Part shown: one piece after another, positions 10,400 to 39,890 of the stretch
Numbering within the stretch: position 1 is the stretch's first letter
Layout of the letters: each line of letters begins with the position of its first letter
NCBI GenBank assembly: GCA_963699545.1
Contig: CAVOUE010000006.1
Span: forward strand, 64,001 to 128,000
DNA: 64,000 nucleotides
Reading direction: 5' to 3'
Origin: Nitrospirota bacterium
Lineage (GTDB): Bacteria; Nitrospirota; Thermodesulfovibrionia; Thermodesulfovibrionales; UBA9159
Notes under the pieces: model-generated
Databases searched by the model: none
Seen by the model: the letters and a program-made list of their open reading frames with translations, nothing else
What the model was told of the DNA's origin: nothing
Program-made: the position numbers and the translations under genes

Positions 10400-10441
10400 A
10401 ACTCTTGAAGTATGATCGAACTGAAATTCAGAAATATAGGC

Positions 10442-19999: not shown

Positions 20000-20050
20000 C
20001 TATTTGTTCAGAACCTTTGCGGCATCCTTTGCAAAATAGGTAAGTATGAG
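20000..20050 (-). repeat. Displaced duplicate of the hemB 3' end (attR-like)
   Basis: Encodes [16 protein letters not shown]; 45/51 nt identical to 22598..22648, all 6 differences synonymous. Confidence 0.95.
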
Positions 20051-20087
20051 AAAAATAGTATTTTGTTCCTTTATTTTTCCTTCGTCA

Positions 20088-21155
20088 TTATGTCGCCATT
20101 ACACTAACTGGTAGGATGTTGTAGCCATAATTATAGCTCTTATCATAGACATAAGTATTGCCGTCTATCATAGAAATTATGTATGCACTTGCATCACCAG
20201 TGGATGTCCAGTAATAGGCAGGTGCAACATTTCTAAAGCCGATGATTTTCAACAAAGAAGATATATCCTTCTCGTACCCTGTCTGACTCTTGGCAAAGTC
20301 AATAATAGTTTTCAATTCATCCAGAGAAGGAAGCCTCCAGTCGCTCCGTCCTGCATACAGGTCGCTATTCATGTTTGACAAGTATTCAAGAACAACACTC
20401 CATCTCATGCCTCCGCCCATATTTGCCTGCTTTGGCCATATTAGTCCTGTTTTTTTGTCTTGGATTATCAAATCCGAAAACAAAAACCTCATCTCAACTG
20501 CTTGTTTGATAGCTTGTTTCCCTTGCTCCTGTGCTTGCTTGATGGCTTGGTAACTTTTCTCTCGTTCTTCTGCCTCTGCTTGCACTCGCTTGATAGCCTG
20601 GTAACGTTTCTCGCGTTCTTCTGCTTCTGCTTGTGCTTGTTCGATCGTTCGGACACGTTTCTCTTGCTCGTTTGTTTCTGAGTTAGTCAATGTGTTTTTA
20701 CTGGACCACCGTTCAAAAAGAGTACCACCAATATTCGGAGAAAACTCTTTGATCGCATCGTCCATCTTCGTAATATATCTATTCAAAAGGCTGATAATAT
20801 TATTACCGTTAATTAATTCGATTGCTTTATTCTGGCTGAAAGAAATTGCTTGTTTGGTAAAATCAGAAGTTGTTATTAGGATTCCTTTATTGGCATTTTC
20901 GTGCATCATCGCACCGTACAACTCTCTCACTATGGGTTCGCCAACATTATTGCCAGGCGTGTATTTCTTGCACTGAATCACATAACGACCACCCACAATA
21001 GGTTGCTCACTCACTGCGATTATGTCTATACCACCATCACCCGAAATTTTGGTAGTGGAAGCATTGAATTGCATTTTTGTCAGTAAAGTTCTTATTAGTT
21101 CCTCGAACTCACGCGGAGCCAATTTTAAAAGGCTGTCGATTTCAAAAAGTTCCAT
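20088..21155 (-). CDS. Mrr-like PD-(D/E)xK endonuclease fused to a coiled-coil repeat and a DUF1566 (Lcl C-terminal) domain
   Basis: PREFEELI...SGDGGIDI...IQCKKY...VRELYG...ITTSDFT; QAEAEEREKxYQAIK x2; DKKTGLIW...GRSDWRLPSLDEL...YYWTST. Confidence 0.85.
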   Translation of the reverse strand: MELFEIDSLLKLAPREFEELIRTLLTKMQFNASTTKISGDGGIDIIAVSEQPIVGGRYVIQCKKYTPGNNVGEPIVRELYGAMMHENANKGILITTSDFTKQAISFSQNKAIELINGNNIISLLNRYITKMDDAIKEFSPNIGGTLFERWSSKNTLTNSETNEQEKRVRTIEQAQAEAEEREKRYQAIKRVQAEAEEREKSYQAIKQAQEQGKQAIKQAVEMRFLFSDLIIQDKKTGLIWPKQANMGGGMRWSVVLEYLSNMNSDLYAGRSDWRLPSLDELKTIIDFAKSQTGYEKDISSLLKIIGFRNVAPAYYWTSTGDASAYIISMIDGNTYVYDKSYNYGYNILPVSVMAT

Positions 21156-21249
21156 TTAGCACCATAATTCTGCATCTTGTTCATCTTATGTAGAATTATA
21201 CCCAGAGAATATAGTTGCAGGCAAGATCTATCTTTCTATGAAACTGCTC

Positions 21250-21278
21250 TTGACATTAAGGATGCCGGTCTTTAAAAT
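21250..21278 (+). promoter_or_regulatory. sigma70 promoter for the island cyclase-like gene
   Basis: TTGACA-17 nt-TAAAAT; GGGAGG RBS at 21315-21320. Confidence 0.75.
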
Positions 21279-21328
21279 CCGTTGAGATATGACTTGCCTT
21301 ACCTATTTTGAGAAGGGAGGATGTTTTT

Positions 21329-22201
21329 ATGGCGGACAACACGCTATTTTCATTATACCTTGTAATTTTTCTTGATCTCCTCGGTCAGCAAGATGCAATT
21401 AAAAGGATAGGAGATGATTTCCCTGCAAGTGATGAAAGTAGGGAGAAGTTTGCGATACCTGTCAGAGAGAGTCTGGGAAAGGTTCTTGACATCCGTAAGA
21501 CGTTTGAAGAATATTTCCACGCCTCGGCAAAATATATTCCAAATAATACTGAGAGTGTACCGCCTATGTACCGTGATGAGTACGTTTCTTGTTTCCAATC
21601 TGAGATAGATTTTTATTGCGTATCGGATTCAATAATTGTTTCATTACCGTTAACAAATGAAAATGAAAATGCGAAAGCTGTTAAAGGGCTATCGTCAGCT
21701 CTTGTGGCTACTGGCGCAATAGGGTTGGCGGCGCTTGCAAAGGGAATTGCCATTCGTGGAGGAATAGACGTTGGAATAGCCGCAAAGATTGATGATCGGG
21801 AAATATACGGGCCTGCATTACAGAAAGCTATTTATTTAGAAAGCGAGCTTGCGGAGTATCCACGTTTTCTTGTAGGCAATGGATTAGTAGGCTATTTGAG
21901 ATGGGTGGGAAAAAAGCAATTTCAGACTCCTTTTGGTGAGATCGCAAGAATCATGGCGCGACACTGTAGTGAAATGATTTTTCAGGATACAGATGGACGA
22001 GTTTGTCTGGATTTCCTTGGTACTAAATTTAAGGAAATCAGCGATAAAACCTTGACAATCGAGCTAATTAAGGAAGCGTGGAAGTTTGTGTCTTCTGAAT
22101 ACGAGAGATTTGCTAAGGAGGAAGATGTCAAATTGACATCTCGCTATTTTAGATTGATGTATTACTTCGTCTCTCGCAAGGGCATATGGGGAATCAATTG
22201 A
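21329..22201 (+). CDS. Hypothetical protein with class III nucleotidyl-cyclase-like motif pattern
   Basis: VIFLDLLG...CVSDSIIVS...IRGGIDVG...IYGPALQKAIYLES...EYPRF; fold call from motif spacing only. Confidence 0.55.
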   Translation: MADNTLFSLYLVIFLDLLGQQDAIKRIGDDFPASDESREKFAIPVRESLGKVLDIRKTFEEYFHASAKYIPNNTESVPPMYRDEYVSCFQSEIDFYCVSDSIIVSLPLTNENENAKAVKGLSSALVATGAIGLAALAKGIAIRGGIDVGIAAKIDDREIYGPALQKAIYLESELAEYPRFLVGNGLVGYLRWVGKKQFQTPFGEIARIMARHCSEMIFQDTDGRVCLDFLGTKFKEISDKTLTIELIKEAWKFVSSEYERFAKEEDVKLTSRYFRLMYYFVSRKGIWGIN

Positions 22202-25404: not shown

Positions 25405-26571
25405 ATGGAAAGCAAGACGATACTGGTAATTGACGCTAACACCGAGACTGCTCAGAACATCGTAGCGACCCTCGAATCCGAAGACTATCTTGTCTTTATG
25501 TCCCCCGCTGCAGAGTTCGCTGTTGCCATCGCCCGAAAAGTGAAACCGGCGCTCATATTGGTCAACACCACCATCTCCGGGGCGGGCTCCCTGGATATCT
25601 GCGCAAAGCTGCACGAAATGGAGGAACTCAGGAGCGTGCCGATCATAGCCCTCATCTCGTTCCCGGGAGAGATGGACCCGCGTTATCGCTCTGAATATGG
25701 GATTGTGGACCTGCTCAGTCAACCCTTTACCGGCGAGGAGCTTACGGCAAAGGTCGCCGGTGCCCTTTCCATGCGGCCGCTTGATTCGATACAGGAAGAA
25801 GGGCCGATGACGTCTGAACACCTGGAAGAAGCTGCGGGCCCGGAAGAGGTACCTGTGGAGAAGACAGGCAAGTCTGACAGGATCGTCGTGAGACTGAAGG
25901 AGAAGAGAGAAGAGACCGGGAACGTGCAGGTCTCCGAGGAGGGAACTGACGCTTCGCTCCAGCCCGTCGAGAGCAGGGAAGTCACAGAGGAAGAACGTGA
26001 AAAGGCATTCACGGCCAGGAAGCCTTTGAGGAGGAAAGGCTCAGCAAGCACGCTGTCTCCTGCGGTTATTGCCGCTGCACTCATCATCATACTGGGCGCG
26101 GCCGGGGTGATCGTCTATAAAATGGGCATCTTTGCGGGGACGGAAGCGAAAAGACCTGTAGCGGTGAAATCTGCCCAACCCGCTGGAGTGCAGCCTCTCC
26201 CGCCATCGCCGGCACCCGAACAGAACCCTCAGCAGGAAGTTTTGCGGGATACGCCCAAACCCCCTGCGCCGGTCTCCCCTCCTGCAGCAGCGTCTTCGCC
26301 CTCCCCTGCGCACGTGGCTGAGAAGAAGGGGGCGGGCAAAACAGTATATTCTGTTCAGATCGGTGCATTCAAGAGCGAGAAGAATGCCGAGGCCCTCGCA
26401 AAACAGTATACGGAGAAGGGGTATGACGCCTTTGTCCGGACTGCTCCAAAGGACAAAGAAATGCTCCACAGGGTCTTGATAGGGAAGTTTGAAGCCCGGA
26501 AAGAGGCAGGGAAACTGGCCAGAGATATCCGAAACAGGGAAAACGTTCAGGTACTTGTCGTGGGGGACTGA
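25405..26571 (+). CDS. Pseudo-receiver domain - acidic linker - TM helix - Pro-rich linker - SPOR domain protein
   Basis: N-terminal REC fold; TM AVIAAALIIILGAAGVIVY; C-terminal YSVQIGAF...NA...HRVLIGKF. Confidence 0.85.
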   Translation: MESKTILVIDANTETAQNIVATLESEDYLVFMSPAAEFAVAIARKVKPALILVNTTISGAGSLDICAKLHEMEELRSVPIIALISFPGEMDPRYRSEYGIVDLLSQPFTGEELTAKVAGALSMRPLDSIQEEGPMTSEHLEEAAGPEEVPVEKTGKSDRIVVRLKEKREETGNVQVSEEGTDASLQPVESREVTEEEREKAFTARKPLRRKGSASTLSPAVIAAALIIILGAAGVIVYKMGIFAGTEAKRPVAVKSAQPAGVQPLPPSPAPEQNPQQEVLRDTPKPPAPVSPPAAASSPSPAHVAEKKGAGKTVYSVQIGAFKSEKNAEALAKQYTEKGYDAFVRTAPKDKEMLHRVLIGKFEARKEAGKLARDIRNRENVQVLVVGD

Positions 26572-26705
26572 GGGCAGACTCCAAAGTCAATCTCCTCCCG
26601 GTCCTTCGGACCCGGCTATCCGGATAACCCTCCTCCCCGTTCTTCACCCGTATCACGAACCCGTTGCGCTCCTCTGTCTTTCTTTGATTTGACCCCTTAT
26701 CAGAG

Positions 26706-26803
26706 TTGACAAAGGCCCCATTTCCTTTTTATTATACTTAGACGGCAAACGGTTACCATCCACCGCGTCTATGCCAGCCAATTAAGGTATAGACGTTGTT
26801 TTT
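26706..26803 (+). promoter_or_regulatory. Promoter plus leader with a terminator-like hairpin (candidate attenuator)
   Basis: TTGACA 26706, TATTAT 26730; stem CGTCTATGCC 26766-26775 / GGTATAGACG 26786-26795, then TTGTTTTT. Confidence 0.6.
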
Positions 26804-26833
26804 ACTGATCACGAAAGGATAAGAAGGACTCTT

Positions 26834-27253
26834 GTGGACCAAAAAAGCGCCGGACTCAGTATTACGATCTTTTTTTGCCAGCAAATAGACCCAAAGCAGG
26901 ACGTCAACAGGCGTGCCCTTGAAAGAGAGCTGGGTGAGCAGATCCGGTTCTTTCCCCTGCCGTGCAGTGGCCGCATCGATCCCCTTCACCTCATGCGCGC
27001 CCTCGAATCAGGGGCTGATAAGGTATATCTGGTCACCTGTCCCGAAGGGGCATGCCATTATCGCGAAGGGAATGTACGCGCCAAAAAGCGCATCGCCTAT
27101 ACCCAGGGTTTGATCGAAGAGATAGGCCTTGAGCGGGAGCGTCTGGAGTTGATTGTCACCTCTGCAGGGAATCCTGTGACTGTAGATGAACTGGCGCGTG
27201 AGCTCCTTGCCCGGGAGGCGTCGATCGGACCCTCTCCGGTGAAGGGAAAATAG
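26834..27253 (+). CDS. mvhD: MvhD/FlpD-family [2Fe-2S] electron-transfer subunit
   Basis: FFC, LPCSGRIDP, GADKV, CPEGACHYREGN. Confidence 0.9.
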   Translation: MDQKSAGLSITIFFCQQIDPKQDVNRRALERELGEQIRFFPLPCSGRIDPLHLMRALESGADKVYLVTCPEGACHYREGNVRAKKRIAYTQGLIEEIGLERERLELIVTSAGNPVTVDELARELLAREASIGPSPVKGK

Positions 27254-27293
27254 GCTTGAAGATAAAAACAGCTGATGATGAAGGAGTAAGAGC

Positions 27294-27962
27294 ATGATTA
27301 CTGCGGAAAGAAAACCTATTGCAGAAATTAAAGAAATGCTGGCGCCCTACAGGAAGATACTGGTAGTGGGCTGCGGGTCCTGCGTGGCTGAGTGTGCATC
27401 GGGAGGCGAAAAAGAGGTGGGACTTCTCTCTTCCGCACTCCGCATGGACGCGAAGGCATCCGGGAAAGAGATAGAACTGAAAGAGATGACGCTGGACCGC
27501 CAGTGCGTCTATGAGTTTATTGACCAGTTGACAGACGTGATCGGCCAGTACGACATTGTCCTCTCGCTCGCGTGCGGCGCAGGGGTACAGGCCGTTGCAG
27601 AGGTCTTCCCAAAGGTCCTTATTGTCCCTGCCCTCAATACAACGTTCCTCGGAGAGACAAAAGAGGCGGGTCTCTGGGTGGAGAACTGCCGTGGCTGCGG
27701 TGACTGCAAGCTCGGGGTTTTCGCTGCCGTATGCCCTGTCACCCGTTGCGCCAAAGGGCTGTTCAACGGCCCCTGCGGCGGCTCCAGGACTGACCGTTGC
27801 GAGGTCGATCCCGATGTGCCCTGCGCGTGGCAGCTCATTGTCTCCAGACTCGAAGATGTGGGTCGGCTTGACCTTCTGCGAAAGGTCCATCCCCCGGCGG
27901 ATTGGTCAAAGCAGCAGGGGAAGGGACCGAGGAAGATCAAGAGGGAGGACCAGAGAACGTGA
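27294..27962 (+). CDS. metV: Methylenetetrahydrofolate reductase Fe-S subunit
   Basis: MITAERKP, GCGSCVAEC, CRGCGDC, CPVTRCAKGLFNGPCGG, CAW. Confidence 0.93.
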   Translation: MITAERKPIAEIKEMLAPYRKILVVGCGSCVAECASGGEKEVGLLSSALRMDAKASGKEIELKEMTLDRQCVYEFIDQLTDVIGQYDIVLSLACGAGVQAVAEVFPKVLIVPALNTTFLGETKEAGLWVENCRGCGDCKLGVFAAVCPVTRCAKGLFNGPCGGSRTDRCEVDPDVPCAWQLIVSRLEDVGRLDLLRKVHPPADWSKQQGKGPRKIKREDQRT

Positions 27963-28882
27963 TGACCGAAAGCCGGCTCAAAAAGGTTTTACATAGTGGA
28001 GATTTCGCCGTTACCGCTGAATGCGGCCCACCAAAGGGAGCCGACCCCGAGGTCGTAAGAAACAAAGGAAAGCTCCTTAAGGGTTATGTGGACAGCGCGA
28101 ATGTTACTGACAACCAGACCGGTGTGGTCCGTCTTTGCAGTCTCGCTGCCTGTGCCTTGCTCAAGGCCGAGGGGCTTGACCCCGTCCTCCAGATGGTCAC
28201 CCGTGACCGTAACCGTATTGCTCTCCAGTCGGACGTCCTTGGGGCCTCTGCACTTGGCATACGTAACATCCTCTGTCTTTCCGGCGATCATCAGTCATTC
28301 GGCAACCAGCCCCAGGCAAAAGGCGTCTTTGACATCGACTCCGTTCAGTTGATACAGGCCGTGCGTCAGATGAGAGATGCCGGCGAGATCATCGGAGGCG
28401 AGAAGCTGACCGCGTCGCCTCAACTGTTTATCGGGGCCGTGGCAAACCCCTTTGCGGATCCTTTTAAGTACCGGGCTGCCCGTCTCGCTACGAAAGTGGA
28501 GGCAGGCGCGGAGTTCATACAGACCCAGTGCATTTTCAATCTCAAGCGCTTCAAAGAGTGGATGGACCTCGTAAAAGACTACGGGATGGATAACAAGGTC
28601 TCCATCCTCGGCGGGATCACGCCCCTTAAGTCTGTCCGCATGGCAGAGTACATGGCGAAGCAGGTGGCCGGCATGGATGTGCCCGAAGAGGTCATCAGCA
28701 GGATGAAAGCGGCGCCCGCAAAAGAACAGCGGCAGGAAGGGATCAAGATAGCCGTGGAAACGATCCAGGCCCTTCAGGAGATGAAGGGTGTTCACGGGGT
28801 CCATATCATGGCGATCGAATGGGAAGATGTCGTTCCACAAATAGTTCAGGAGGCGAAACTTTTCCCGAGGCCCCAGGTTTGA
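27962..28882 (+). CDS. metF: Methylenetetrahydrofolate reductase, FAD subunit
   Basis: VTAECGPPKG, NVTDN, RDRNRIALQSD, GAEFIQTQ, GVHIMA; stop/start overlap with metV. Confidence 0.95.
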   Translation: MTESRLKKVLHSGDFAVTAECGPPKGADPEVVRNKGKLLKGYVDSANVTDNQTGVVRLCSLAACALLKAEGLDPVLQMVTRDRNRIALQSDVLGASALGIRNILCLSGDHQSFGNQPQAKGVFDIDSVQLIQAVRQMRDAGEIIGGEKLTASPQLFIGAVANPFADPFKYRAARLATKVEAGAEFIQTQCIFNLKRFKEWMDLVKDYGMDNKVSILGGITPLKSVRMAEYMAKQVAGMDVPEEVISRMKAAPAKEQRQEGIKIAVETIQALQEMKGVHGVHIMAIEWEDVVPQIVQEAKLFPRPQV

Positions 28883-28897
28883 GAGGAGAGAGGAGCT

Positions 28898-30282
28898 ATG
28901 CCCCCTAAATATCATATTCATACCAGCCAGGCAGCAAACCGGCTTCAGTCGATCACCCGGTCGGGAGTCATTGCATGGGAAGAAGGGTGCCTCAAATGCG
29001 CCCGCTGCGTGAAGAAGGATTGCGTCTACAAGGTATATGAAAAGCGGGGTATTGACGCCGGCCAGATGCTCGAATCCCTCGACAGCGTCTGCAAGGACTG
29101 CTTCCGCTGCGTCCAGGGCTGTCCGAACAAGCTTATCCAGAAGGGGCTCAATCCCTCATATAAAGACCTCGGAGATCATTACTGGACGCCGGAGATCATT
29201 TCGGCGCTCTGGTTTCAGGCAGAAGCGGGACGCATCCCTGTTTCCGGCGCCGGTTACGGGGGACCTTTCTCCGGGCCCGGTTTTGACGCCATGTGGACAG
29301 ACATGTCCGAAATAGTCCGGCCTACAAGGGATGGTATCCACGGCCGCGAATACATAAGCACCGTGACCGATATCGGCCGCAAGGTGATGGCCCTCGAATT
29401 CGATCATTCGGGCGCACTTTCGATAACTCCGCCGCCCCTTGTGGAGATACCGCTGCCGATTATTTTCGACATACTGCCCTGGTCGCCGCCTCGGAAAGGG
29501 ATCAATCTCGCCCTTCTCGAAGGAGCACGGTCGCTGGGCACCTTTGCGGTTATCCGGCAGAGCGAGTTCGATCCGGCGATGGAGGAGTATCTCCCCAGCA
29601 TGGTCCTTTACGCTGACGGGAGGTTATCCGATATCGAGTCCGGCGGTCCTGCGCACGTTGCGCCTGATAGAGATACCGTACGGGGAAGAAGTCATCGCCG
29701 CACAGAACGCCCTGAAAGAAAAGTACCCCGGCCTCGTGACAATTATCCGGATGGAACTCGGTCCTGACTCATCGGAGAATGTCTTCCGGCTCACCACAGA
29801 AGGGGCCGAGGCCATACATCTTGTTGCCGACGAATACGGCCTTGAAAAGGCCGATAAGCCTCTCTTCATAAAAGAACGGGTGAAGGAGATCCACCTTCAC
29901 CTCGTGGAGAAGGGAGTGCGGGACCAGATCACCCTTATCGCAGGCGGGGGCATCGCGATGGCGGAACATGTGGCAAAGCAGATCATCTGCGGTGCCGACC
30001 TCTTGTCCGTTGACATACCGCTCCTCGTTGCCATGGAGTGCAGGGTGTGCCGCCGCTGCAAGGAGGGCATTGCCTGTCCCGTGGGGCTTGACAGTGTTGA
30101 CCCCGTCTGGGGCTGCCGGCCGCATAAGGAACCTCATGGCAGGCTGGCATAACCAGCTTCTGGAGATCCTGGGCGCCATGGGTATCCGTGAGGTGAGAAG
30201 ACTGCGGGGCGAAATGGGCCGGGCCATGTTCTTCGAAGATCTTGAAAAAAATATTTTCGCCACTCTGGGCAAAAGAAGTTGA
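28898..30282 (+). CDS. Ferredoxin plus degenerate glutamate-synthase FMN-barrel protein (frameshifts near 29635 and 30115)
   Basis: CLKCARC and CKDCFRCVQGCP; RDQITLIAGGGI, CRVCRRC, GAMGIREVRRLRGE spread over three ORFs. Confidence 0.8.
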
Positions 30283-30286
30283 GGGA

Positions 30287-31809
30287 ATGGGAAACAAACC
30301 AGAGACATTCACGCTCCCTGAGATCAAACCGCTGCCAAGCCGTTTCCGCAACGCCCTCGGAAAGTATCGTGTTACGGTAACCAAGGCGTGCAACAACTGC
30401 GGACTCTGCGTAACGCTCTGTCCCTATGGTGTGTATAAGACCGGCTCAAAAAAACCAAGGGTGGCAGCCGAGCATCTCTGCCTCGGCTTCCCGTGCAGCG
30501 CAAATGATTTCTACTGCGTACGCAGATGCCCTGAAAAGGCGATCCAGTTAAGTCTGAACCCGTCTTTTGAAATCCTGGGAGACAGACGGTGGCCGGCGGA
30601 ACTTCTTGCCAGCACCTGGCATATGGCGGAGACCGGTGAGATTCCGTACCAGGGACTGAACTACAAGACCGGCGATTCCGGAGGCGGCTTCGATAAGCTC
30701 CGTTTTATCTTTCCAAGGGGAAAAGGGTTGGCTATCCCCGATGAAGAGGTATCCACAGCCATTGAACTGAACCGCTCCGGAGATTCGCGGCCGGGCATCA
30801 CTATCCCGGTTCCTTTTTATCTTGGCGGCATGTCCTTCGGCTCTGTCAGTATCGTGACGATGCTCTCCCGCGTCAGGGCCGCCACGGCCCTTAATACCTT
30901 CTGCTGTACCGGTGAAGGCGGCTACCCGGAGGAACTGATTCCTTACGATGATCACGTCATCACCCAGGTGGCAACAGGCCTCTTCGGGGTGCAGAGAAGA
31001 GACGATCAAGAGGGTCCGCATCGTGGAGTTCAAGTATGCCCAGGGGGCAAAACCCGGTCTTGGCGGACATCTCCTCGGTGACAAGGTGACACCCCGTGTG
31101 GCCAGTATGCGTGAGGCGGTGGCGGGAAGCGCTCTCTTCTCACCGTTTCCGTTCCACAGCGTCTATTCGGTCGAAGACCACAAGAAACATGTGGACTGGA
31201 TAAAGGAGACGAACCCCCGTGCCCTCGTGTCGGTAAAGGTCTCAACACCGACTGATGTGGACATGGTTGCCGTGGGGAGTTACTACGCCGGGGCCCATAT
31301 CGTTCAGCTTGACGGAAGTTACGGCGGGACCGGTGCGGCGCCGGATATTGCAAAAAAGAATATTGCCATGCCGATCGAATATGCCCTGCCCAAGGTGCAC
31401 AAGTTCCTTAGCGAAGAGGGTATCAGGGACAAGATCACCATTATCGCGAGCGGCGGGATACGGTCAGCCCACGACATGGCGAAGGCCATTGCCCTTGGCG
31501 CCGACGGGGTCTGTCTCGGCACCGCCGACCTCGTGGCCCTTGAGTGCATCCGCTGCCACCACTGTGAGTCAGGTCGTGGCTGTGCCCGGGGTATCGCCAC
31601 AACGGACGAAGAACTTACGAATCTGATGGAGCTCGAATGGGCGACCCAGCGTATCATCAACATGTATCTGACCTGGCGGCGCCAGCTTGTCTCTCTCCTC
31701 AAGCGGCTGGGTATGAAGAGCGTTACAGAGCTTGTGGGACGCTTCGATGTGATCGGCCACCTCGATTACCTTAAGCAGGAAGAGACTGGAAGGGGAACTG
31801 GATATATGA
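30287..31809 (+). CDS. Ferredoxin plus glutamate-synthase FMN-binding (GltB2-like) subunit (frameshifts near 30990 and 31780)
   Basis: CNNCGLCVTLCP, GGMSFGS, CTGEGG, QVATGLFG, KYAQGAKPGLGG, GGTGAA, SGGIR, CIRCHHC; predicted TGA 31807-31809 overlaps the next ATG. Confidence 0.85.
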
Positions 31810-34460
31810 AACAGAGCAGCATGAGCAGAGGCAATAATCAAGGCCCGGCACCATCTTCCGGCGAGGCCGGCAGACTGGTAAAACAGACCGGGATAGAAGC
31901 TGAAGAAGGCGGCTGCGGCGTTACCGGTTTTGCCTGCAGCATTCCCGTGAGTGGCCGTCACATCTTCGAACCCTCCGTGCAGATGCACAACAGGGGAAAC
32001 GGGAAAGGCGGAGGTCTCGCGGCTGTCGGCCTGAGCCCGGCCAAACTGGGAGTTGACCAGAAGACGCTCGACAATGACTTCCTCCTTCAGGTCGCACTTC
32101 TTGACGAGTCCGCCCTGCCGGAGATGGAGACACGCTTTATCCGGCCTCACTTCCGGGTTGCCCATGAGGCGTTCATCGAGACCATCGATGATTACAGGGA
32201 TGTTCCCGGCCTGGAGACGAAGCCCCCGGCGGTAAAACGCTACTTTGTGCGGGTGAAGCCCGAAGTCCTTGCCCGGTTCCAGAAAGAACGCGGTCTGGAA
32301 ATGCTGCCTTCCTCCAAGGCAGAGGAAGAGTTCGTCTACCAGAATACCTATCAGCTGAACCTTGCCCTTTACAGTTCCCTGGGCGAGAAAAGGGCCTTTG
32401 TTCTGTCCCACGGCAGGAACATGATGATACTGAAGATCGTTGGGTATGCAGAAAAGGTGGCACAGTACTACAAACTGGAGAACTTTGATGCCCATATATG
32501 GATAGCCCATCAGCGCTATCCCACCAAGGGCCGCGTATGGCATCCGGGGGGCGCTCACCCCTTCATAGGTCTCGATGAGGCCCTCGTGCACAACGGGGAC
32601 TTTGCCAATTATTACTCCGTGTCCGACTATTTGCGACAGCGGAATGTCTACCCCCTGTTCCTCACCGATACGGAGGTCTCGATCCAGGTCTTCGATCTGC
32701 TCAACAGGGTGTACGGCTATCCTCTCGAGTACATCATTGAGGCCCTTGCACCAACAGGCGAGATGGATTTCGACCATCTGCCCGAGGAAAAACAGCGCAT
32801 ATACAGGCAGATCCAGGCTGCCCACATCCACGGCTCCCCTGATGGACCCTGGTTCTTTATCATCGCCCGCAACGATGTCCGGAGGAAACAGTTCCAGCTC
32901 ATCGGTATCACGGATACGGCCATGCTCCGGCCCCAGGTCTTTGCTTTGCAGAAGGGTGATGTGGAGATAGGCCTGATCTGTTCGGAAAAGCAGGCCATCG
33001 ATGCAACCCTTGAAAGCCTCGCAAAAGAAGACCCTCGCTTCGGCACGGTAGCAGACCATTACTGGAACGCCCGTGGCGGAAGTTACACCGATGGCGGCGC
33101 CTTTATCTTCTCGATAAAGGAGTCCGCGCCCGGAAAAATGAGCCTCACCTGCACTGACAAATTCGGAGGGGCCATTGATGTCCCCACGGACCAGACACCC
33201 CTTGATTTTCGCTCAGAGCTGCCCGGCGTACCAGCCTCCCATGTGGATCACGTCAAGGGTGTTCTCGCGGGGTTGTCTGAGAAGAACGTAATGAACCTCT
33301 TCACCGAGCTGAAAGGGGAATTTGCTGAATGGGACTATGCACGGTTCTCCGTCTTCCTCGACCATCTTGCCGCCCTTGCGGAAAAAGATGAGCTGAAGGG
33401 GCTGGTGATAGCCGTTCTCACGCTCCTTCTCGACCGGCGCTATCCTATGGGCAGCAAGAGGCGGCGCTCCGTTCTCCAGATGGTCTCCGGTGCCCTCGAT
33501 TCGATCTTCAGGACAATCCCCGGGATCAACGACAAAAGGGGCGTGTTGTATTTCCGCAGGATCGATTTCGAAAACCGCCATGCGCTTCGCAAGCCCAGGA
33601 GAGGGGAAAAGGTGCTGGTTGCAGACGCAGGGCGGTTCCCGCCTGAAGGTGATGAATCCTTCTCCCGTCTTGTTTCTGACGCATACGCGCTTGGGTGGAA
33701 GCGGTTCATCTGTTTCGGCCATCGGGGTCAGCGCTTCCTGGGTTGCGGGTTAGGTCCCGACACAGAGGGCGTGCGCATTGACGCCTTCGGTTCTACGGGA
33801 GACTATCTTGGTTCGGGTATGGATGGACTTGAAGTGTATGTACACGGAAATGCCCAGGATCAGCTCGGGCAGATCATGAAGTCAGGGAAACTCGTCGTGT
33901 ATGGCGATGTGGGTCAGACGTTCATGTACGGCGCGAAAGGCGGCGAGGTCTATGTGCTCGGAAACGCGGCAGGCCGTCCCCTCATCAATGCCGTGGGAAA
34001 ACCGAGGGTCGTGATAAACGGCACAGCCCTCGACTACCTCGCAGAGTCCTTTATGGCGGGCGATCCTTACAACGGCGGCGGTTTTGTTATCCTGAACGGC
34101 CTGAGGTCCGACAAAGACGGAAAAATGATCCCTCAGGACATACCCTACCCCGGGTCCAACCTCTTTTCCCTCGCATCGGGGGGAGCGATATTTGTCCGTG
34201 ATCCCCGTCAGAGCATAGTACCGGAACAGCTGAACGGCGGTCAGATCTTTCCCTTCACCGAAAGAGACTGGAAGCTGATACTTCCCTATCTGAAAGAGAA
34301 TGAACGCCTCTTCGGCATCACGACAGAAGAGCTCCTCACTGTAGACGGCAGGAAACGCAAACCAGAAGAGGTTTATCGCACCATCGGGGCCGTAAAGCTT
34401 TCCGTCCTCTCGGGGAGCGCCGCCCTCGCTATGAACGAAGAGTGGGAAGAAGGGGATTAG
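31806..34460 (+). CDS. Class II glutamine amidotransferase plus GXGXG beta-helix subunit (GltB1+GltB3-like)
   Basis: EEGGCGV processing-site-like Cys, HNRGNG, AHQRYPT, HNGD, DGP, LRP; C-terminal GDYLGSG, GNAQDQ, GNAAGR repeats. Confidence 0.88.
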   Translation: MKQSSMSRGNNQGPAPSSGEAGRLVKQTGIEAEEGGCGVTGFACSIPVSGRHIFEPSVQMHNRGNGKGGGLAAVGLSPAKLGVDQKTLDNDFLLQVALLDESALPEMETRFIRPHFRVAHEAFIETIDDYRDVPGLETKPPAVKRYFVRVKPEVLARFQKERGLEMLPSSKAEEEFVYQNTYQLNLALYSSLGEKRAFVLSHGRNMMILKIVGYAEKVAQYYKLENFDAHIWIAHQRYPTKGRVWHPGGAHPFIGLDEALVHNGDFANYYSVSDYLRQRNVYPLFLTDTEVSIQVFDLLNRVYGYPLEYIIEALAPTGEMDFDHLPEEKQRIYRQIQAAHIHGSPDGPWFFIIARNDVRRKQFQLIGITDTAMLRPQVFALQKGDVEIGLICSEKQAIDATLESLAKEDPRFGTVADHYWNARGGSYTDGGAFIFSIKESAPGKMSLTCTDKFGGAIDVPTDQTPLDFRSELPGVPASHVDHVKGVLAGLSEKNVMNLFTELKGEFAEWDYARFSVFLDHLAALAEKDELKGLVIAVLTLLLDRRYPMGSKRRRSVLQMVSGALDSIFRTIPGINDKRGVLYFRRIDFENRHALRKPRRGEKVLVADAGRFPPEGDESFSRLVSDAYALGWKRFICFGHRGQRFLGCGLGPDTEGVRIDAFGSTGDYLGSGMDGLEVYVHGNAQDQLGQIMKSGKLVVYGDVGQTFMYGAKGGEVYVLGNAAGRPLINAVGKPRVVINGTALDYLAESFMAGDPYNGGGFVILNGLRSDKDGKMIPQDIPYPGSNLFSLASGGAIFVRDPRQSIVPEQLNGGQIFPFTERDWKLILPYLKENERLFGITTEELLTVDGRKRKPEEVYRTIGAVKLSVLSGSAALAMNEEWEEGD

Positions 34461-34566
34461 AGAACCGCTTTCCCCGACTCTTCCGACGTTCGCAGATAAC
34501 TGCCCCCCTTTGCCCTGCGATTCGCCTGTAATGCACATCAGAGAGAATCCTCTCCTGACCAGCTCG

Positions 34567-34680
34567 TTGACAAAGATGGCCTCGGTTTTATTATAATTAA
34601 ACATAGTTTCGCAATTGAATCGGCTAAGGGTTATTGTTCCGGCGTCTCGTACCAGAAGCAGGGTCGAGACGCTCTTTTTT
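34567..34680 (+). promoter_or_regulatory. Promoter plus leader terminator of the second glutamate synthase operon
   Basis: TTGACA 34567, TATTATAAT 34589-34597; stem GCGTCTCG 34642-34649 / CGAGACGC 34665-34672, then TCTTTTTT; ATG at 34709. Confidence 0.65.
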
Positions 34681-34708
34681 CAGAAACATAACGATGAGGT
34701 AATCGGCT

Positions 34709-35822
34709 ATGTGCAGACTTGCTGCGGTAACATCGGGAGAATACATATCGCCGATGGAACCAATCTTCGCCCTGGAGACGATGAAGGAAGGCCACGACGG
34801 GAGCGGCCTCGGGATCACGATGAGGGATCTGAACGGTGAATTCGAGAAACTGAAAGAATACCCCATACTTTCGGGCATCTGTACAAGGAATGGGGGCCGG
34901 ATCATTGACGAGTACATGGACAAACTCGGCTTCGAACTCCTCCACGTATGGGCGCCGAAGATCAAAAAGACAAAGGGTGTCGTTCCCCGTGAGTACTATT
35001 TCGCCAGGGTTTACGACTATCCGGATTCCTTCAAGTACCGATCGATACAGGAGAAGGAGGACCTTCTCCTGCAGACCCGGCTCTCCCTGAGGAAGCTCGG
35101 AGAGTCCGATGAATCACTCTTCGTCTTCTCCTTCTATCCCGATGTACTTACCCTGAAGGAGGTCGGCGATCCCCTTCAGTTGGGCGAGTTTTTCGGTCTC
35201 GACCGTGATGACGTGAAGGCGAGGATAGTTTTTGCACAGGGCAGGCAGAACACGAATTACGCCATCTACCTGTACGCCTGTCATCCCTTCTTCCTCCAGG
35301 GATGCTGTTCCATGACCAACGGTGAGAATACGGCCTTTGTTCCCATAAGGGAGTATCCTCATGGGCAGGAGGTTCCCGGGGTATACGGGATACAACAGCG
35401 ACAGCGAGGTATTCACCCACATTCTCCACTACACGGTAAGACAGCTGCGGCTATCCTCTCACCTACTACAAAGATGTCATCACGCCCCTCAAGGCTGCTG
35501 AGATCGATGCGCGGGAGGACCGTGATGTCGCTGCGGCTCATCAAGCAAGTCCCTCAGGATGCTCTGCATCGACGGCCCGAACTGTGTTATCGGCTTTACG
35601 CCCGACGGCACCTGTTTCATGGTCCAGGATGCAAAGAAGCTGCGGCCCGGTGTTGTCGGCGGTGCGAAGGGCAAGTATGCGCTGATGTCGGAGGAGTGTG
35701 GCGTTGAAAGCGTCGTCCCGGGCAGGGACAGGACGACTGACATCTTCCCTATGAAGTACGACATGGTCATCATCTCACCCGAGGCAAAGGAGGTCAAGGT
35801 ATGGAACCAGCTGCACGGTTAG
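34709..35822 (+). CDS. Glutamate synthase amidotransferase subunit (GltB1-like), several frameshifts after 35355
   Basis: N-terminal MCRL (Cys2 nucleophile), EGHDGSG, QGRQNT, TNGEN, IDGPN, KLRP. Confidence 0.88.
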
Positions 35823-37467
35823 ACCATAACCATCAACTCTCCTCTAAGAGAGTTTCCCTATATCATCCGCTGGAGGGACGACCGGTGCAAGAGGTGCGGC
35901 AAATGCACCGCGGTCTGCCCGGTGAAGGCGATCGAGCCTGCTGTAAAGGTCCAGAGGACCGTCCATTCGGAAGGACCGGTCCCCCAGCCCACAGCCGCAA
36001 AAAAGATCGTCCAGGTTGTGGAGCAGGTCACTGACATGGACCGGTACTGCACGGGCTGCGGTACCTGCACCCTAGTGTGTCCCAATGAGGCCATTGAGCC
36101 TGAATATAATCCCCAGAACAAGTTTCTGCATTACAAGAACAAAGGCGGGGAGCCGTACAAGAGGGGCGGCAGGAGGAACGATCCTTCCGTATCGACCCTT
36201 GACAGGCTCAAGTTCACAAGGATATCCATGCTCACCGACCCGGCGCTCGACGCCGGCAGGCACGAGTTCCGCGTGAGGACACTCCTGGGAAGGATACTTG
36301 CCTCCGGAAGAGCTGCCGTTGAAGACGATCGGAGGAAAGCTGGTAGTGGATAAGGACAGCGGCAGGTTCATACCTCCGGTGAGGGAGATATATCCCCATC
36401 ATGATCGGCAGCATGTCTGTTGGCGCGCTTTCTCCTCCCATGTGGGAGGGTCTCGCCATGGGTGTGGCGTACCTAAACGAGGTGGAAGGGTTGCCGGTGG
36501 TGATGTGCTCCGGTGAGGGAGGAATGCCGCCGAGACTGCTGAGATCAAAGTATCTGAAATACTTCATCATCCAGATCGCATCGGGATATTTCGGATGGGA
36601 CGAGATCATCCACGCGCTGCCGCATATGGTGGAAGACCCTGCTGCCATAGAGATCAAGTACGGTCAGGGTGCGAAGCCCGGTGACGGCGGACTTCTGATG
36701 GCTCAGAAGGTCCTTAAGCTGATTGCGAGCATCAGGGGGGTGCCCCAGTTCGTTGACCTCTGCGTCGCCTCCCACACACCAGACAAAGTACTCGATCGAA
36801 GAGGCGGTGGCAAAGATGATCCAGTCCATGTCCATGGCGTGGGGCTTCAGGGTTCCGGTCTACCCGAAGATCTCCGGCACGAAGACAGCCCGTGCGGTGC
36901 TGAATAACCTTGCAAGGAATCCCTATGCCGCTGCACTCTCGCATTGACGGTGAGGACGGCGGGACAGGCGCTGCATACAATGTTTCCATGGACAAGATGG
37001 GACATCCCATCGCGTCCAATATCAGAGACTGTTATCTTGACCTTGTGAAACAGGGCAAGCAGAACGAGCTCCCCCTGATCGCGGCAGGAGGTGTGGGCAA
37101 AAAGGGGAACCTGGCGGCAAACGCTGCCGCCCTCATCATGCTCGGCGCGTCAGCGGTCTCGATCGGGAAATATATCATGCAGGCCGCGGCAGACTGTTTC
37201 GGCGATGAGTACAACCGCTGCAACCTCTGCAATACCGGAAAATGTCCGAGGGGCATCACCACGCAGGACCCCAAACTCTACCGAAGGCTCGATGCTGACA
37301 AGGTGGCTGAACGGGTCGTGGAGGTCTTCAAGGCTGCCGATGTGGAGATGCGGAAGATATTCGCCCCTATGGGAAGAAGCACGGAGCTGCCCATCGGAAT
37401 GTCTGACGGGCTGAGCATAGAGGATAAGGCGATGGCAGAGAGGTTAGAGATAAACTATGCGTGCTAA
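35801..37467 (+). CDS. Glutamate synthase ferredoxin plus FMN-binding subunit (GltB2-like), several frameshifts
   Basis: CKRCGKCTAVCP, CTGCGTCTLVCP, GSMSVGALS, CSGEGG, EIKYGQGAKPGDGG, GGTGAA, CNLCNTGKCPRGITTQ. Confidence 0.88.
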
Positions 37468-39890
37468 GAAAAAGAAAGCGCCAGGTGACAAGTCAAGAGT
37501 GATGAGCAAGAAAACGAAAAAGAAAGACTCCTCACCCGTTGCTGCTCACTCGTCACGTGGTAACGTAGTTACGATAAAGGGCACCGTGGACGGAGATCGT
37601 GTTCCCTCGAGGATACTTGAGGAGCAGATCCAGCAGGCGGTCCGGGAAGGCGCGCAGGAGCTGCATATCGTCGCCCAGGGCCAGCATGGCATCGGCGGCC
37701 GCATCTGGCCGACGGGCCGAGACGGTAAAGATAACCGTTGACGGACCTGTAGGACAGAGGCTGGGGAGCATGGGCATGCCCGGCACAGAGATCATCGTAC
37801 ACGGCAGCTCTTCCGATGACGTCGGGTGGCTTAACTGCGGCGCAAAGATCACGGTATTGGGAGATGTAACAAACGGCGCTTTTAATGCCGCTGCCCAGGG
37901 CTTTCTCTATGTGCAGGGAGGAGGAGGCGCGCGGTGTGACACCATGACCAAGCACAACCCCCGCTTCGACCCTCCCCAGTCGTGGTATTTCAGGGACGTG
38001 GGAGATTCGTTTGCAGAATTCAAGGCAGGGGGAATCGCAGTGGTCTGCGGAGTGAAGCCAAGGGACCCTGAGAACATCCTGGGCTATCGTCCCTGCGTCG
38101 GCATGGTTGGCGGCACCATCTACTTCCAGCGGCCCCATCAAGGGATACAGTGAAAAGGATGTGAAACTCCTTGACCTTACGCCTCAGGACTGGGAATGGC
38201 TCAGGACGAACATGAGGCCCTTCCTCGCGGCCGTCGACAGGATATCCCATTACGAGGAACTCACCCGCTCTTCCGACGACTGGAAGAAGCTTATGGCGTA
38301 TACGCCCCAGGAAAAGAGATCGAGGAAATGGTTCAAGATCTCGACCTCCGATTTCAGAAAGAACATGTGGGAAAAGGATGTGGGACAAGGCGGCATCTTC
38401 GCCGAGTACATGAGCCACGATCTCACGCTGCTTCCCTATATCACCACCGGCAATGAGAGACGGAACAGGCCCATCTGGTCGAACGACAAGTATGCTCCGC
38501 CCTGCGCGTTCGCGTGCCCTACACAGATACCGTCACACAAAAGGGCCTCCCTTATCCGGCAGGGCAGGCTCAATGACGCCCTGGAACTGGTACTGAGATA
38601 TAGTCCGCTGCCCGCGACGGTCTGCGGGGAGATATGCCCGAACCTCTGCATGCAGAGCTGCACCAGGGCGCATCTCGACAAGCCCCTTGAGATAGACATG
38701 ATGGGCAAACTCGCCCTTGATCTCCCTGCCCCGAAGAAGGACCCCGCAACAGGCCATGTGATCGCGGTGATCGGAGGAGGTCCGGCAGGCATGAGCGCTG
38801 CGTGGCAGCTTGCCCTGAAAGGACATACGGTTGACATTTACGAAGCCACGGACAGGCTGGGGGGGAAACTTGAACTCTCGATCCCGAAAGAGCGCCTTCC
38901 CCGCCAGATCCTTGAGAAAGAGATTTCCCGGTTCAGGGAACTGGGAGTGAATCTGCTTCTGAACACAAAGGTCACGAAAGACAAATTCGATGAGATCTAC
39001 AAGAAGCATGAGCTGGTTGTCCTGGCCTGCGGCGCCCACGAGCCGAGGAAGGTGTCGTTCCCGGGTTCCGGGGACAACCGTGTCTGCGTACGACTTTCTG
39101 AGAGATATCAACCTGGGGAAGAGGCCTGACCTGAAGGGCAAGAAAGTCGTGGTCATAGGAGCGGGAAACGTAGGTATGGACGCTGCCTCTGAGGCATATA
39201 ACAACGGCGCGGAATCCGTTGTGGCTGTGGATATCCAGAAACCTGCTGCCTTCGGAGCGGAGATGGAGATCGCCAGGGCGAAAGGCACTCAGGTCATCTG
39301 GCCGAAATTTACGGAGCGTTTTGACAGGCGCGAAAGGAAGGTCTTCTTTCAGGACGGAACTTCGCTGGATGCGGATTTTGTCGTGATGTCCATAGGAGAT
39401 GTGCCACAGCTCGATTTCCTTCCCCAGAGTGTCCATACGGAGAGGGGGTGGATTCCGGTCAACAATAAGTACCAAACATCCGATGTGAAAGTGTATGCCA
39501 TCGGCGATGTGACAGGCCTGGGCCTAGTGACCCATGCCATCGGCCACGGAAGGCTCGCTGCTGATTATATCCACTATGAACTGATGCATGCGCCGCGCAA
39601 TCCAGAGATCACAGCAGATGATCGCTTACGAGAAGATCAAGACGGAGTATTACGACGTCTGCCGTGGGGATTTCGTCTCACTCGAGATATCCGCGAACCG
39701 GTGCATGTCCTGCGCCACGTGCAGAGACTGCCACATGTGCGAGTCGACCTGCTACTGGGGAGCCATCAGCAGGGTTGAACATAATGATGGCTCGTATGAG
39801 TATGTGGTGGACGACAATCTCTGCATCGGGTGCGGGTTCTGCGCAGGGGTCTGCCCCTGCGGCGTCTGGGAGATGGTAGAGAACGTGTAA
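37457..39890 (+). CDS. GXGXG domain plus GltD-like FAD/NAD(P) oxidoreductase plus ferredoxin, several frameshifts
   Basis: GQHGIGG, GQRLGSMG; PCAFACP, VCGEICP, GGGPAG, GAGNVGMD, AIGD; CMSCATCRDCHMC and CIGCGFCAGVCP. Confidence 0.85.

Follow-up and report, generated by a model that had tools for sequence, protein, structure and literature searches.

Gene clusters joining a split, iron-sulfur-rich glutamate synthase to MvhD and MetVF: a possible methyl-tetrahydrofolate-driven GOGAT in anaerobic bacteria

Glutamate synthase (GOGAT) is the main route by which nitrogen enters biomass. The enzyme is known to draw its electrons from NAD(P)H or ferredoxin and, in some archaea, from F420. Methylene-tetrahydrofolate (methylene-THF) reductases of the MetFV type are known in two settings, with HdrABC and MvhD in the Moorella type and with RnfC2 in the Acetobacterium type. 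We analyzed a stretch of 64,000 nucleotides from a Nitrospirota genome (the whole stretch is called the window here) and studied a cluster of six genes at positions 26834-34460 of its plus strand. In this cluster, mvhD, metV and metF are followed by two genes for proteins with a ferredoxin domain and a flavin mononucleotide (FMN) barrel, which we label FMN1 and FMN2, and by a gene fusing a glutamine amidotransferase (GATase) to a GXGXG domain, which we label GATGX. A sequence-only reading of this DNA had suggested either a coupling of the methyl-/methylene-THF couple to glutamate synthesis or an anaerobic reaction of the methylamine/N-methylglutamate type. Our preferred reading, to which we give a probability of roughly 45%, is that the six genes encode one split, Fe-S-rich GOGAT with MetFV as its electron-input module and 5-methyl-THF as the donor; that the six subunits of this modular GOGAT form one complex, and that electrons flow in this direction, is inferred.

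GltBD and the ferredoxin-dependent GlsF (solved structures 1ea0, 6s6s, 7mfm, and 1ofd) share with the cluster an N-terminal nucleophile (Ntn) amidotransferase with an extension before the catalytic Cys, the FMN/2-oxoglutarate synthase domain, and the GXGXG beta-helix, and GATGX and FMN1 resemble these enzymes most closely in fold. In the cluster, however, these domains are distributed over three proteins and in another order, with the GATase fused straight to GXGXG and with no recognizable central domain. There is an extra, degenerate FMN-type Fe-S subunit, the FMN-type proteins start with 2x[4Fe-4S] domains and have four instead of three loop Cys, and the cluster has MvhD and MetVF but no GltD. 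The archaeal-type split glutamate synthase, of which a second operon in the window is an example, has the split build and the ferredoxin domain before the FMN barrel in common with the cluster. Its GATase, Fer4-FMN, and GXGXG parts are separate, whereas here GATase and GXGXG are fused and two FMN-type subunits are present, and its donor subunits are GltD-like or of the F420 type, in contrast to MvhD and MetVF. The GATase of the second operon begins with MCRLAA (Met-Cys), while GATGX has a propeptide-like extension. The triad MvhD-MetV-MetF has the same gene order as in the Moorella and Acetobacterium types, but HdrABC or RnfC2 is replaced here by the GOGAT subunits, and the genomes retain a separate Hdr-type copy. 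The predicted parts belong to known families, namely GltB/GlsF, archaeal split GOGAT, and MetFV-Hdr-MvhD. In the accessible portions of the full-text literature, outside subscription journals and supplements and including 10.1101/2021.09.25.461819, PMC5736913, PMC2702500, PMC7325909, PMC5947290, PMC8097209, and PMC7117923, we found no description of a glutamate synthase linked to MvhD or MetFV. As far as those texts go, what appears undescribed is the combination of a fused GATase-GXGXG protein, two FMN subunits of which one is catalytic and the other degenerate, MvhD, and exchangeable MetFV, GlcD-like, or Hdr modules.

The three downstream genes encode the GOGAT core. In GATGX, C36, R62-G63, N262-G263, and D287 are invariant in 41/41 sequences, and we take their amidotransferase roles to be those described for PurF, GlmS, and GltS. 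The catalytic Cys is preceded by an EEGG motif and, in the complete N-termini, by about 25 to 85 residues (two of the sequences begin at a contig end); all 62 N-termini listed contain GGCGV[TI]GF, 61 with T and that of locus L038 with I. Bacterial GltB has a cleaved presequence too. In the structural model of GATGX (pLDDT 80), an Ntn amidotransferase domain is followed by a helical linker and, at residues 582-860, by a beta-helix, and its best fold matches are the glutamate synthases 7mfm_G, 6s6s_A, and 1ofd_A. The GXGXG profile PF01493 scores 50.5 bits on the open reading frame (ORF) of the window and 52.7 bits on an ortholog; existing database annotation calls GATGX "glutamate synthase" or "hypothetical."

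An FMN2 ortholog matches PF01645 with 306.6 bits over profile positions 55-368, compared with 204 bits for the subunit of the neighboring operon. FMN2 also aligns with A. brasilense GltB 853-1171 (168 bits) and retains the QGAKPG..GG, GGTGA, and cluster-loop motifs; it is a predicted canonical GOGAT synthase domain. FMN1 matches PF01645 weakly (47 bits, C-terminal third only), and in hhalign its residues 259-433 align with the FMN domain of a classical GltB at 94% probability, although GGTGA is replaced. It keeps eight ferredoxin-type Cys, the four-Cys cluster loop, and an invariant stretch of 21 residues, WTDMSEIVRPTRDGIHGREYI. Its barrel models confidently, with glutamate synthase and other FMN barrels as similar folds. 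We read FMN1 as a probable degenerate paralog of FMN2 that serves as a noncatalytic Fe-S wire. The idea that FMN1 corresponds to the central domain of GltB (PF04898), which has a weak match in FMN1 alone (E 1e-4), was rejected, since hhalign puts FMN1 on the FMN domain.

The genomic context indicates what the core does. FMN2 is the only PF01645 match above 290 bits in 9/10 other cluster-bearing genomes, where all remaining matches score 60 bits or less; the exception also carries a classical 1475-aa GltB. Among the 67 fetched regions of a Thermodesulfobacteriota sample described below, 28 contain glnA, amt, glnB, or carAB, and in variants without metVF the core is placed between glnA(-amt-glnB) and carAB. 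The GlnA neighbors score as full glutamine synthetase (399 to 455 bits plus the N-domain). None of these nitrogen assimilation genes stands beside the cluster of the window. Because the core is usually the sole GOGAT and has such neighbors, we take it to be a working, glutamine-dependent GOGAT and not an N-methylglutamate synthase, as is predicted from its conserved residues as well. An MgsABC-type or other amine-transfer reaction supplying methyl groups to THF under anoxia would be a form of the second suggestion of the sequence-only reading, and it has some appeal in that MgsABC is likewise made of GATase-like, GXGXG, and FMN modules and in that folate enzymes adjoin the core here. The described context of MgsABC, however, consists of gmaS and the methylamine genes mgdABCD, and no gmaS- or mgd-like gene was found in the window or in 7 annotated loci, whereas ammonium assimilation genes surround the core. 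The GATase catalytic residues are kept, and FMN2 is canonical at 306 bits. On the genomic context and the sole-GOGAT status we rejected such a reaction, to which we give next to no weight.

We then looked at the conservation of the linkage. Across public genomes, 590 stretches encode relatives. Of the 77 loci nearest to that of the window, 30 were dropped for want of 5300 bp upstream or of a full-length GATGX, which left 47. Upstream of FMN1-FMN2-GATGX, 34/47 have MvhD-MetV-MetF, 6/47 MvhD only, 4/47 MvhD-MetV, and 2/47 MvhD with a divergent MetF, while 1/47 is rearranged; MvhD is present in 46/47. As an unbiased sample we used 301 evenly drawn species genomes from the phylum of genome G041 (Thermodesulfobacteriota) with a cutoff of E <= 1e-100, and GATGX was found in 91 of them. 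From the 91 we set aside two genomes that had been studied before and nine with partial matches; in 67 of the 80 loci then fetched, the upstream DNA reached 5600 bp or more. The full six-gene order was seen in 34/67 and MvhD only in 20/67, including two divergent FlpD genes found by Pfam. A GlcD/GlcF-like FAD and Fe-S protein of 617 to 639 aa was found in 5/67 and MvhD-MetV in 4/67, with 1/67 each for MvhD-MetF, MetV only, neither module, and a rearranged locus. Eight loci first scored without MvhD had been rechecked by Pfam, which gave two divergent FlpD missed by the tblastn cutoff, five GlcD-like proteins, and one locus with neither. In total, FMN1 and FMN2 are present in 66/67 loci of the sample and MvhD in 59/67.

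The same order recurs across phyla, and it is for this reason far beyond chance. The linkage is thus conserved, and the six-gene unit of the sequence-only reading is real; what that reading overlooked is that MetVF is an exchangeable module on a core of MvhD-FMN1-FMN2-GATGX. Pairwise distances of the six proteins correlate with r 0.88-0.97 over 28 loci, which measures co-inheritance and not interaction, since related sequences share history. In the GATGX tree and the MetF tree alike, the Nitrospirota copies nest in a Syntrophorhabdaceae/Syntrophaceae clade, and from this nesting in both trees we conclude that the cluster was transferred between phyla as one block of six genes.

Aligned to solved methylene-THF reductases (MTHFRs), the cluster MetF keeps the Glu of AECGPP, the Asp of LSGD, and the Gln of TQ, residues that we take to be catalytic, and it has Ala at the position of the E. 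coli MetF Phe that stacks on NADH. With these residues in PF02219 and with the partner subunit PF12225, the pair is a predicted MetFV-type methylene-THF reductase. All of the five genomes checked have two to seven MTHFR copies, the others lying in HdrA-MvhD-MetV-MetF(-HdrCB) or GltD-like-MetV-MetF clusters. GOGAT-linked MetFs form two supported clades beside the Hdr-linked MetFs, and the MetF of the window is among the GOGAT-linked ones; the orphan MetF of a genome with a metF-less cluster also falls in the GOGAT-linked clade. These paralog and tree data indicate that the MvhD-MetV-MetF triad, which elsewhere follows hdrA, occurs here as a dedicated copy before FMN1. The genome of the window has such genes at two other sites. 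Its contig C5 carries HdrC..HdrA-MvhD-MetV without an adjacent metF. On its contig C9 (G000:C9:7000-25000, L098), two tandem metF genes lie next to an RnfC-like gene of Complex1_51K-SLBB-Fer4 build and to genes for corrinoid methyltransferases. The C9 locus also encodes a BMC-domain shell protein, an aldehyde dehydrogenase, a formate-THF ligase, two URO-D-type methyltransferases, a pterin-binding methyltransferase, a corrinoid protein, and RACo, and it looks like a methyl-group utilization locus, possibly with a microcompartment.

Hdr genes adjoin the GOGAT genes in 11/67 loci. The order is MvhD-FMN1-FMN2-GATGX-HdrA-MvhD-MetV-MetF-HdrC-HdrB in L073 and HdrC-HdrA-MvhD-MetV-MetF-MvhD-FMN1-FMN2-GATGX in L140 and L162. 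In L140, L162, L073, and L077, the GOGAT genes are joined to a full HdrABC-MvhD-MetFV set, hence two mvhD; these operons may be evolutionary intermediates of the six-gene cluster or encode a bifurcating supercomplex. Such loci lend some support to an arrangement in which flavin-based electron bifurcation of the HdrA type has the GOGAT module as one of its arms. MvhD would then dock GOGAT and MetFV on an HdrA encoded elsewhere, and an endergonic reduction would be powered by the exergonic reaction of the GOGAT. The HdrA in question could be that of contig C5, where the Hdr genes lack an adjacent metF. There is, however, no hdr gene in the operon of the window nor in 56/67 loci, and nothing points to an endergonic partner reaction, so that we regard this arrangement as very improbable.

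The module is exchanged for something else in five loci, all in Desulfobacterota genomes, where a GlcD/GlcF-like FAD and Fe-S protein is encoded directly upstream of FMN1 in place of MvhD-MetV-MetF (Table 1) and would be another type of input module for the core. Enzymes of the GlcD/GlcF family normally oxidize 2-hydroxyacids, and the swap therefore suggests that the exchanged module is probably the donor side of the GOGAT. The GlcD-like protein has weak similarity to the D-2-hydroxyglutarate dehydrogenase YdiJ and might even make the 2-oxoglutarate substrate.

MvhD has four Cys, C15, C44, C69, and C74, that are invariant in 44 orthologs. The complex model of FMN1 with MvhD scored 0.61 (runs 0.61, 0.65, and 0.59), compared with 0.00 for the best of 3 controls; the score mark used is reached by 58/80 solved complexes and 2/110 mismatched pairs and is only rough here, as self-built alignments were used. 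The runs share at least 84% of contacts with a partner pLDDT of at least 77, and the modeled contacts join FMN1 385-393 (in the C382/C385/C388/C394 loop) and the ferredoxin domain to MvhD 11-56 around C15 and C44. Multimer modeling, which the sequence-only reading had named as a check, thus gives a supported interface for this pair, and the model supports binding of MvhD to FMN1 at the Fe-S loops. We know of no solved complex of this kind and of no role of MvhD besides that of an electron adaptor between modules.

This interface bears on another explanation, by which the MetFV reductase and the split GOGAT, the latter of the ferredoxin type and including MvhD, are two independent enzymes that are merely cotranscribed or coregulated, with no electron transfer between them. 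MetVF is missing from 27/67 core-bearing loci, operons can unite functionally loose partners, and adjacency alone yields co-inheritance. Independence fits poorly with MvhD, which elsewhere links HdrA to MetV, is known only as an adaptor, and is seated by the model on the cluster loop of FMN1. It also fits poorly with the MvhD-MetV-MetF order next to FMN1 in 34/67 loci of divergent clades and with the relocated MetF that remains in the GOGAT-linked clade. We consider two independent enzymes quite unlikely.

In the methyl-THF-driven GOGAT that we prefer, GATGX would hydrolyze glutamine at its N-terminal Cys after removal of the propeptide and would supply the GXGXG beta-helix, and FMN2 would reduce 2-iminoglutarate at its FMN. 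FMN1, catalytically degenerate, would serve as an electron wire with three retained Fe-S sites. MvhD would dock on the FMN1 cluster loop and, as the adaptor, connect it to what in the window is the dedicated MetV-MetF methylene-THF reductase. The electron path would most likely run from 5-methyl-THF to the MetF flavin, MetV, MvhD, FMN1, FMN2, and finally 2-iminoglutarate. Pfam shows no pyridine-nucleotide domain in MetFV, which leaves as redox sites those of folate and of the GOGAT together with the surfaces that the ferredoxin-like domains expose. For the CH2-THF/CH3-THF couple the standard potential (E0') is about -200 mV, and for 2-oxoglutarate+NH4+/glutamate it is about -130 to -140 mV; hydrolysis of glutamine contributes about -14 kJ/mol. 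From these values we estimate the methyl-THF-driven reaction at roughly -25 kJ/mol; a low-grade reductant (about -200 mV) would pay for a strongly exergonic GOGAT reaction. We favor methyl-THF as the donor because of the dedicated extra MetF paralog, the GlcD-like replacement in five loci, and the fitting energetics.

The same split GOGAT and the same physical complex could instead have reduced ferredoxin as the donor, which would enter through the ferredoxin domains that FMN1 and FMN2 possess. From there electrons would move outward to two acceptors, 2-iminoglutarate and, by way of MvhD and MetV, MetF; a single bifunctional complex would act as GOGAT and as methylene-THF reductase, each dependent on ferredoxin. 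Each FMN subunit has a 2x[4Fe-4S] domain at its N-terminus, MetFV enzymes without Hdr are reported to use reduced ferredoxin in vitro, and the core-only variants (20/67) manage without MetVF. Such an enzyme leaves unexplained, however, why two acceptor reactions should share a complex and be co-inherited as a block. The genomes already have an Hdr-type MetFV for the Wood-Ljungdahl pathway, and the GlcD-like module of the five loci is of a kind that normally donates electrons. We regard ferredoxin as the donor of both reactions as unlikely.

Several observations weigh against a GOGAT driven by methyl-THF. The core occurs without MetVF, with MvhD only in 20/67 loci and with neither module in 1/67, and ferredoxin itself could pass electrons straight to FMN1 and FMN2 at their ferredoxin domains. 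The flux through GOGAT serves anabolism, is small next to the catabolic turnover of methyl-THF, and cannot be a main electron sink. GATGX orthologs were found in only 3/41 close relatives (the genome of the window, G012, and G004). In the genome of the window, a second, GltD-type GOGAT adjoins the cluster, which is therefore not essential there, and the 87%-complete assembly, although it encodes two GOGATs, yielded no glnA (glutamine synthetase, PF00120); the gene probably sits in the missing part of the assembly or behind frame errors. The cluster loops of FMN2 and FMN1 have four Cys each, where classical GltB has three, and modeled support stops at FMN1 with MvhD, the one pair covered. The coupling between the methyl-/methylene-THF couple and glutamate synthesis is backed by synteny, by the co-inheritance of the six proteins, by dedicated MetF paralogs, and by the modeled MvhD-FMN1 interface. 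To this extent the sequence-only reading holds, with the coupling itself held only at the level of confidence given above and ferredoxin possible as a common donor.

The variants suggest a more general picture, which we put forward tentatively and with somewhat less confidence than a coin toss would warrant. The core would be a plug-in electron sink for flavoprotein dehydrogenases whose substrates are too oxidizing for NAD+ or ferredoxin, attached through MvhD or directly, with 5-methyl-THF (through MetFV), a 2-hydroxyacid (through the GlcD-like protein), or HdrA as partners. These would form a family of substrate-dehydrogenase-coupled glutamate synthases. The split form is present in 91/301 sampled species of a major anaerobic phylum, often as the sole GOGAT, and its genes point to methyl-THF or other low-grade reductants as GOGAT donors. 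If this is true, energy-limited sulfate reducers, syntrophs, and mercury-methylating Nitrospirota would draw on C1-pathway electrons to assimilate nitrogen and so spare NADPH or ferredoxin, and C1 flux would be tied directly to nitrogen assimilation in about one-third of Desulfobacterota species. A new activity, 5-methyl-THF:2-oxoglutarate/glutamine oxidoreductase, would be defined, and MetFV would gain a defined redox partner, a long-standing question in the energetics of the Wood-Ljungdahl pathway. HdrA, where it occurs, could fill the role of a pulling or bifurcation partner that has long been sought for MetFV complexes.

The six tightly packed, co-oriented genes of the sequence-only reading stand as to content, order, plus strand, and spacing (40 bp, 15 bp, or overlap), but that reading overlooked the frameshifts, and FMN1 and FMN2 are not intact in the assembly. 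A Pfam scan of the ORFs gave an MTHFR ORF starting at 27902/27959 and ending at 28882, Fer4+Glu_synthase pieces at 28898-30152 and 30242-31081, and an ORF of 1170 aa at 30948-34460 with Glu_synthase (238 bits), GATase_6, and GXGXG (50.5 bits). Mapping of the intact proteins of locus L019, whose MetV is 91% identical to that of the window, places frame changes near 29642 and 30114 in FMN1 and near 30991 and 31785 in FMN2. In a DNA alignment with four orthologs, all four shifts are single extra bases, and three further compensating indels at 31824, 31854, and 31860 are also single extra bases with no counterpart in the orthologs. The last FMN2 shift fuses the C-terminus of FMN2 to GATGX in the ORF finder output, and the 1170-aa ORF is apparently an artifact of this insertion. 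In clean orthologs the FMN2 stop overlaps the GATGX ATG, and so it does in the window, in the ATGA at 31806-31809 (TGA 31807-31809, ATG 31806-31808).

Contigs of 4 public DNA runs, 90 to 99% alike, omit exactly these inserted bases. The assembly (13 contigs, 87% complete) has rpoB split over two frames as well (e.g., G000:C12:38396-42287), and comparison with the L019 proteins shows at least 10 frame changes in the second glt operon. From the absence of the inserts in orthologs and public-run contigs, the split rpoB, and the shifted second operon, we read the FMN1 and FMN2 frameshifts as probable assembly indel errors and not as decay. Four frameshifts within 3 kb and the scarcity of the cluster among relatives (3/41) might be taken to mean that FMN1 and FMN2 are genuine pseudogenes in this strain and that the cluster is decaying beside a working GltD-type GOGAT. 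The supposedly working operon has even more frame changes, however, rpoB is likewise split, the shifted frames keep 75 to 94% identity without premature stops, and every change is a single extra base missing from the related contigs of the 4 runs. We rejected decay as extremely unlikely on this evidence of assembly error. Single-base insertions are pervasive in the window and the genome, and ORF-based readings of this assembly need guidance from orthologs.

The Pfam scan of ORFs found no Hdr, hydrogenase, or GltD-type domain inside 26834-34460, as the sequence-only reading had stated. Pyr_redox_2 and Fer4_20 are absent from this interval and confined to the next operon, and the cluster is thus not an NADPH-GOGAT (GltBD); nor is it a Moorella-type MetFV-HdrABC-MvhD operon, since hdrABC is absent from it. 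A 262-bp gap precedes mvhD and a 248-bp gap precedes the second operon, each with an 11/12 sigma-70-like match, and these are the only two plus-strand matches in 26300-35000. By this consensus match the second operon would be separately promoted; the scan found 5 sites against 3.9 expected and is no proof of function. The second glt operon noted next door by the sequence-only reading is indeed there (Table 1). Most of the 41 relatives have weak matches to a GXGXG-bearing frame of about 780 to 840 aa and a GATase frame of about 370 to 410 aa, which is consistent with this operon being common among them.

Table 1. Positions of the features discussed, in the window (plain numbers) or in other loci (L numbers)
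Feature	Position	Strand	Basis
Sigma-70-like promoter match TTGACA-18-TATTAT, 11/12, ~100 bp upstream of mvhD	26706..26735	+	consensus scan
mvhD (FlpD family, small Fe-S adaptor, 139 aa)	26834..27253	+	PF02662, 89.8 bits
metV (Cys-rich MetF partner subunit, 222 aa)	27294..27962	+	PF12225, 119.2 bits
metF (methylene-THF reductase, MetFV type)	27959..28882; start GTG 27959 or ATG 27962	+	PF02219, 135.6 bits
FMN1 (2x[4Fe-4S] ferredoxin domain and putative degenerate FMN-type barrel with 4-Cys loop)	28898..30282	+	Pfam, alignments
FMN2 (ferredoxin domain and predicted canonical FMN/2-oxoglutarate domain)	30242..31809; start TTG 30242 or ATG 30287; stop TGA 31807-31809	+	Pfam, GltB alignment
GATGX (propeptide-like N-terminus, class-II Ntn amidotransferase, helical linker, GXGXG beta-helix; 884 aa)	31806..34460	+	Pfam, model
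Sigma-70-like promoter match, 11/12, before second glt operon	34567-34594	+	consensus scan
Second glt operon (GATase; Fer4-FMN; GXGXG fused to GltD-like), not part of the complex	34709..39890	+	Pfam
hgcA (CdhD-like corrinoid domain, NVWCAAGK motif, transmembrane C-terminus)	about 10409-11608	+	Pfam, motif
GlcD/GlcF-like FAD and Fe-S protein directly upstream of FMN1, replacing MvhD-MetV-MetF	L165:8539-10413, L168:8540-10456, L170:3091-4971, L177:3140-4990, L180:8568-10442		
Stand-alone protein/regulator near the cluster	L019:1435-3093(-), L019:3291-4553(-); L053:2282-3856; L060:1-657, L060:783-2162(-); L078:76-1770; L146, L150		

Two other kinds of gene recur near the cluster in several phyla and are missing beside the copy in the window: a stand-alone protein of 525 to 565 aa with a weak, partial Glu_synthase match, and a KaiC-like ATPase/helix-turn-helix/cupin regulator that is PuuR-like. 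Elsewhere in the window, hgcA with its NVWCAAGK motif bears out one half of the hgcAB pair named by the sequence-only reading. The other half, a ferredoxin-like hgcB region that follows hgcA up to about 11960, reads through stops or frame changes in the assembly. Window positions 20001-22200 have a low GC content (0.40 versus about 0.53) and encode a restriction endonuclease of the Mrr type, to which an Lcl C-terminal domain is fused, together with an unassigned ORF, and are possibly a small island.

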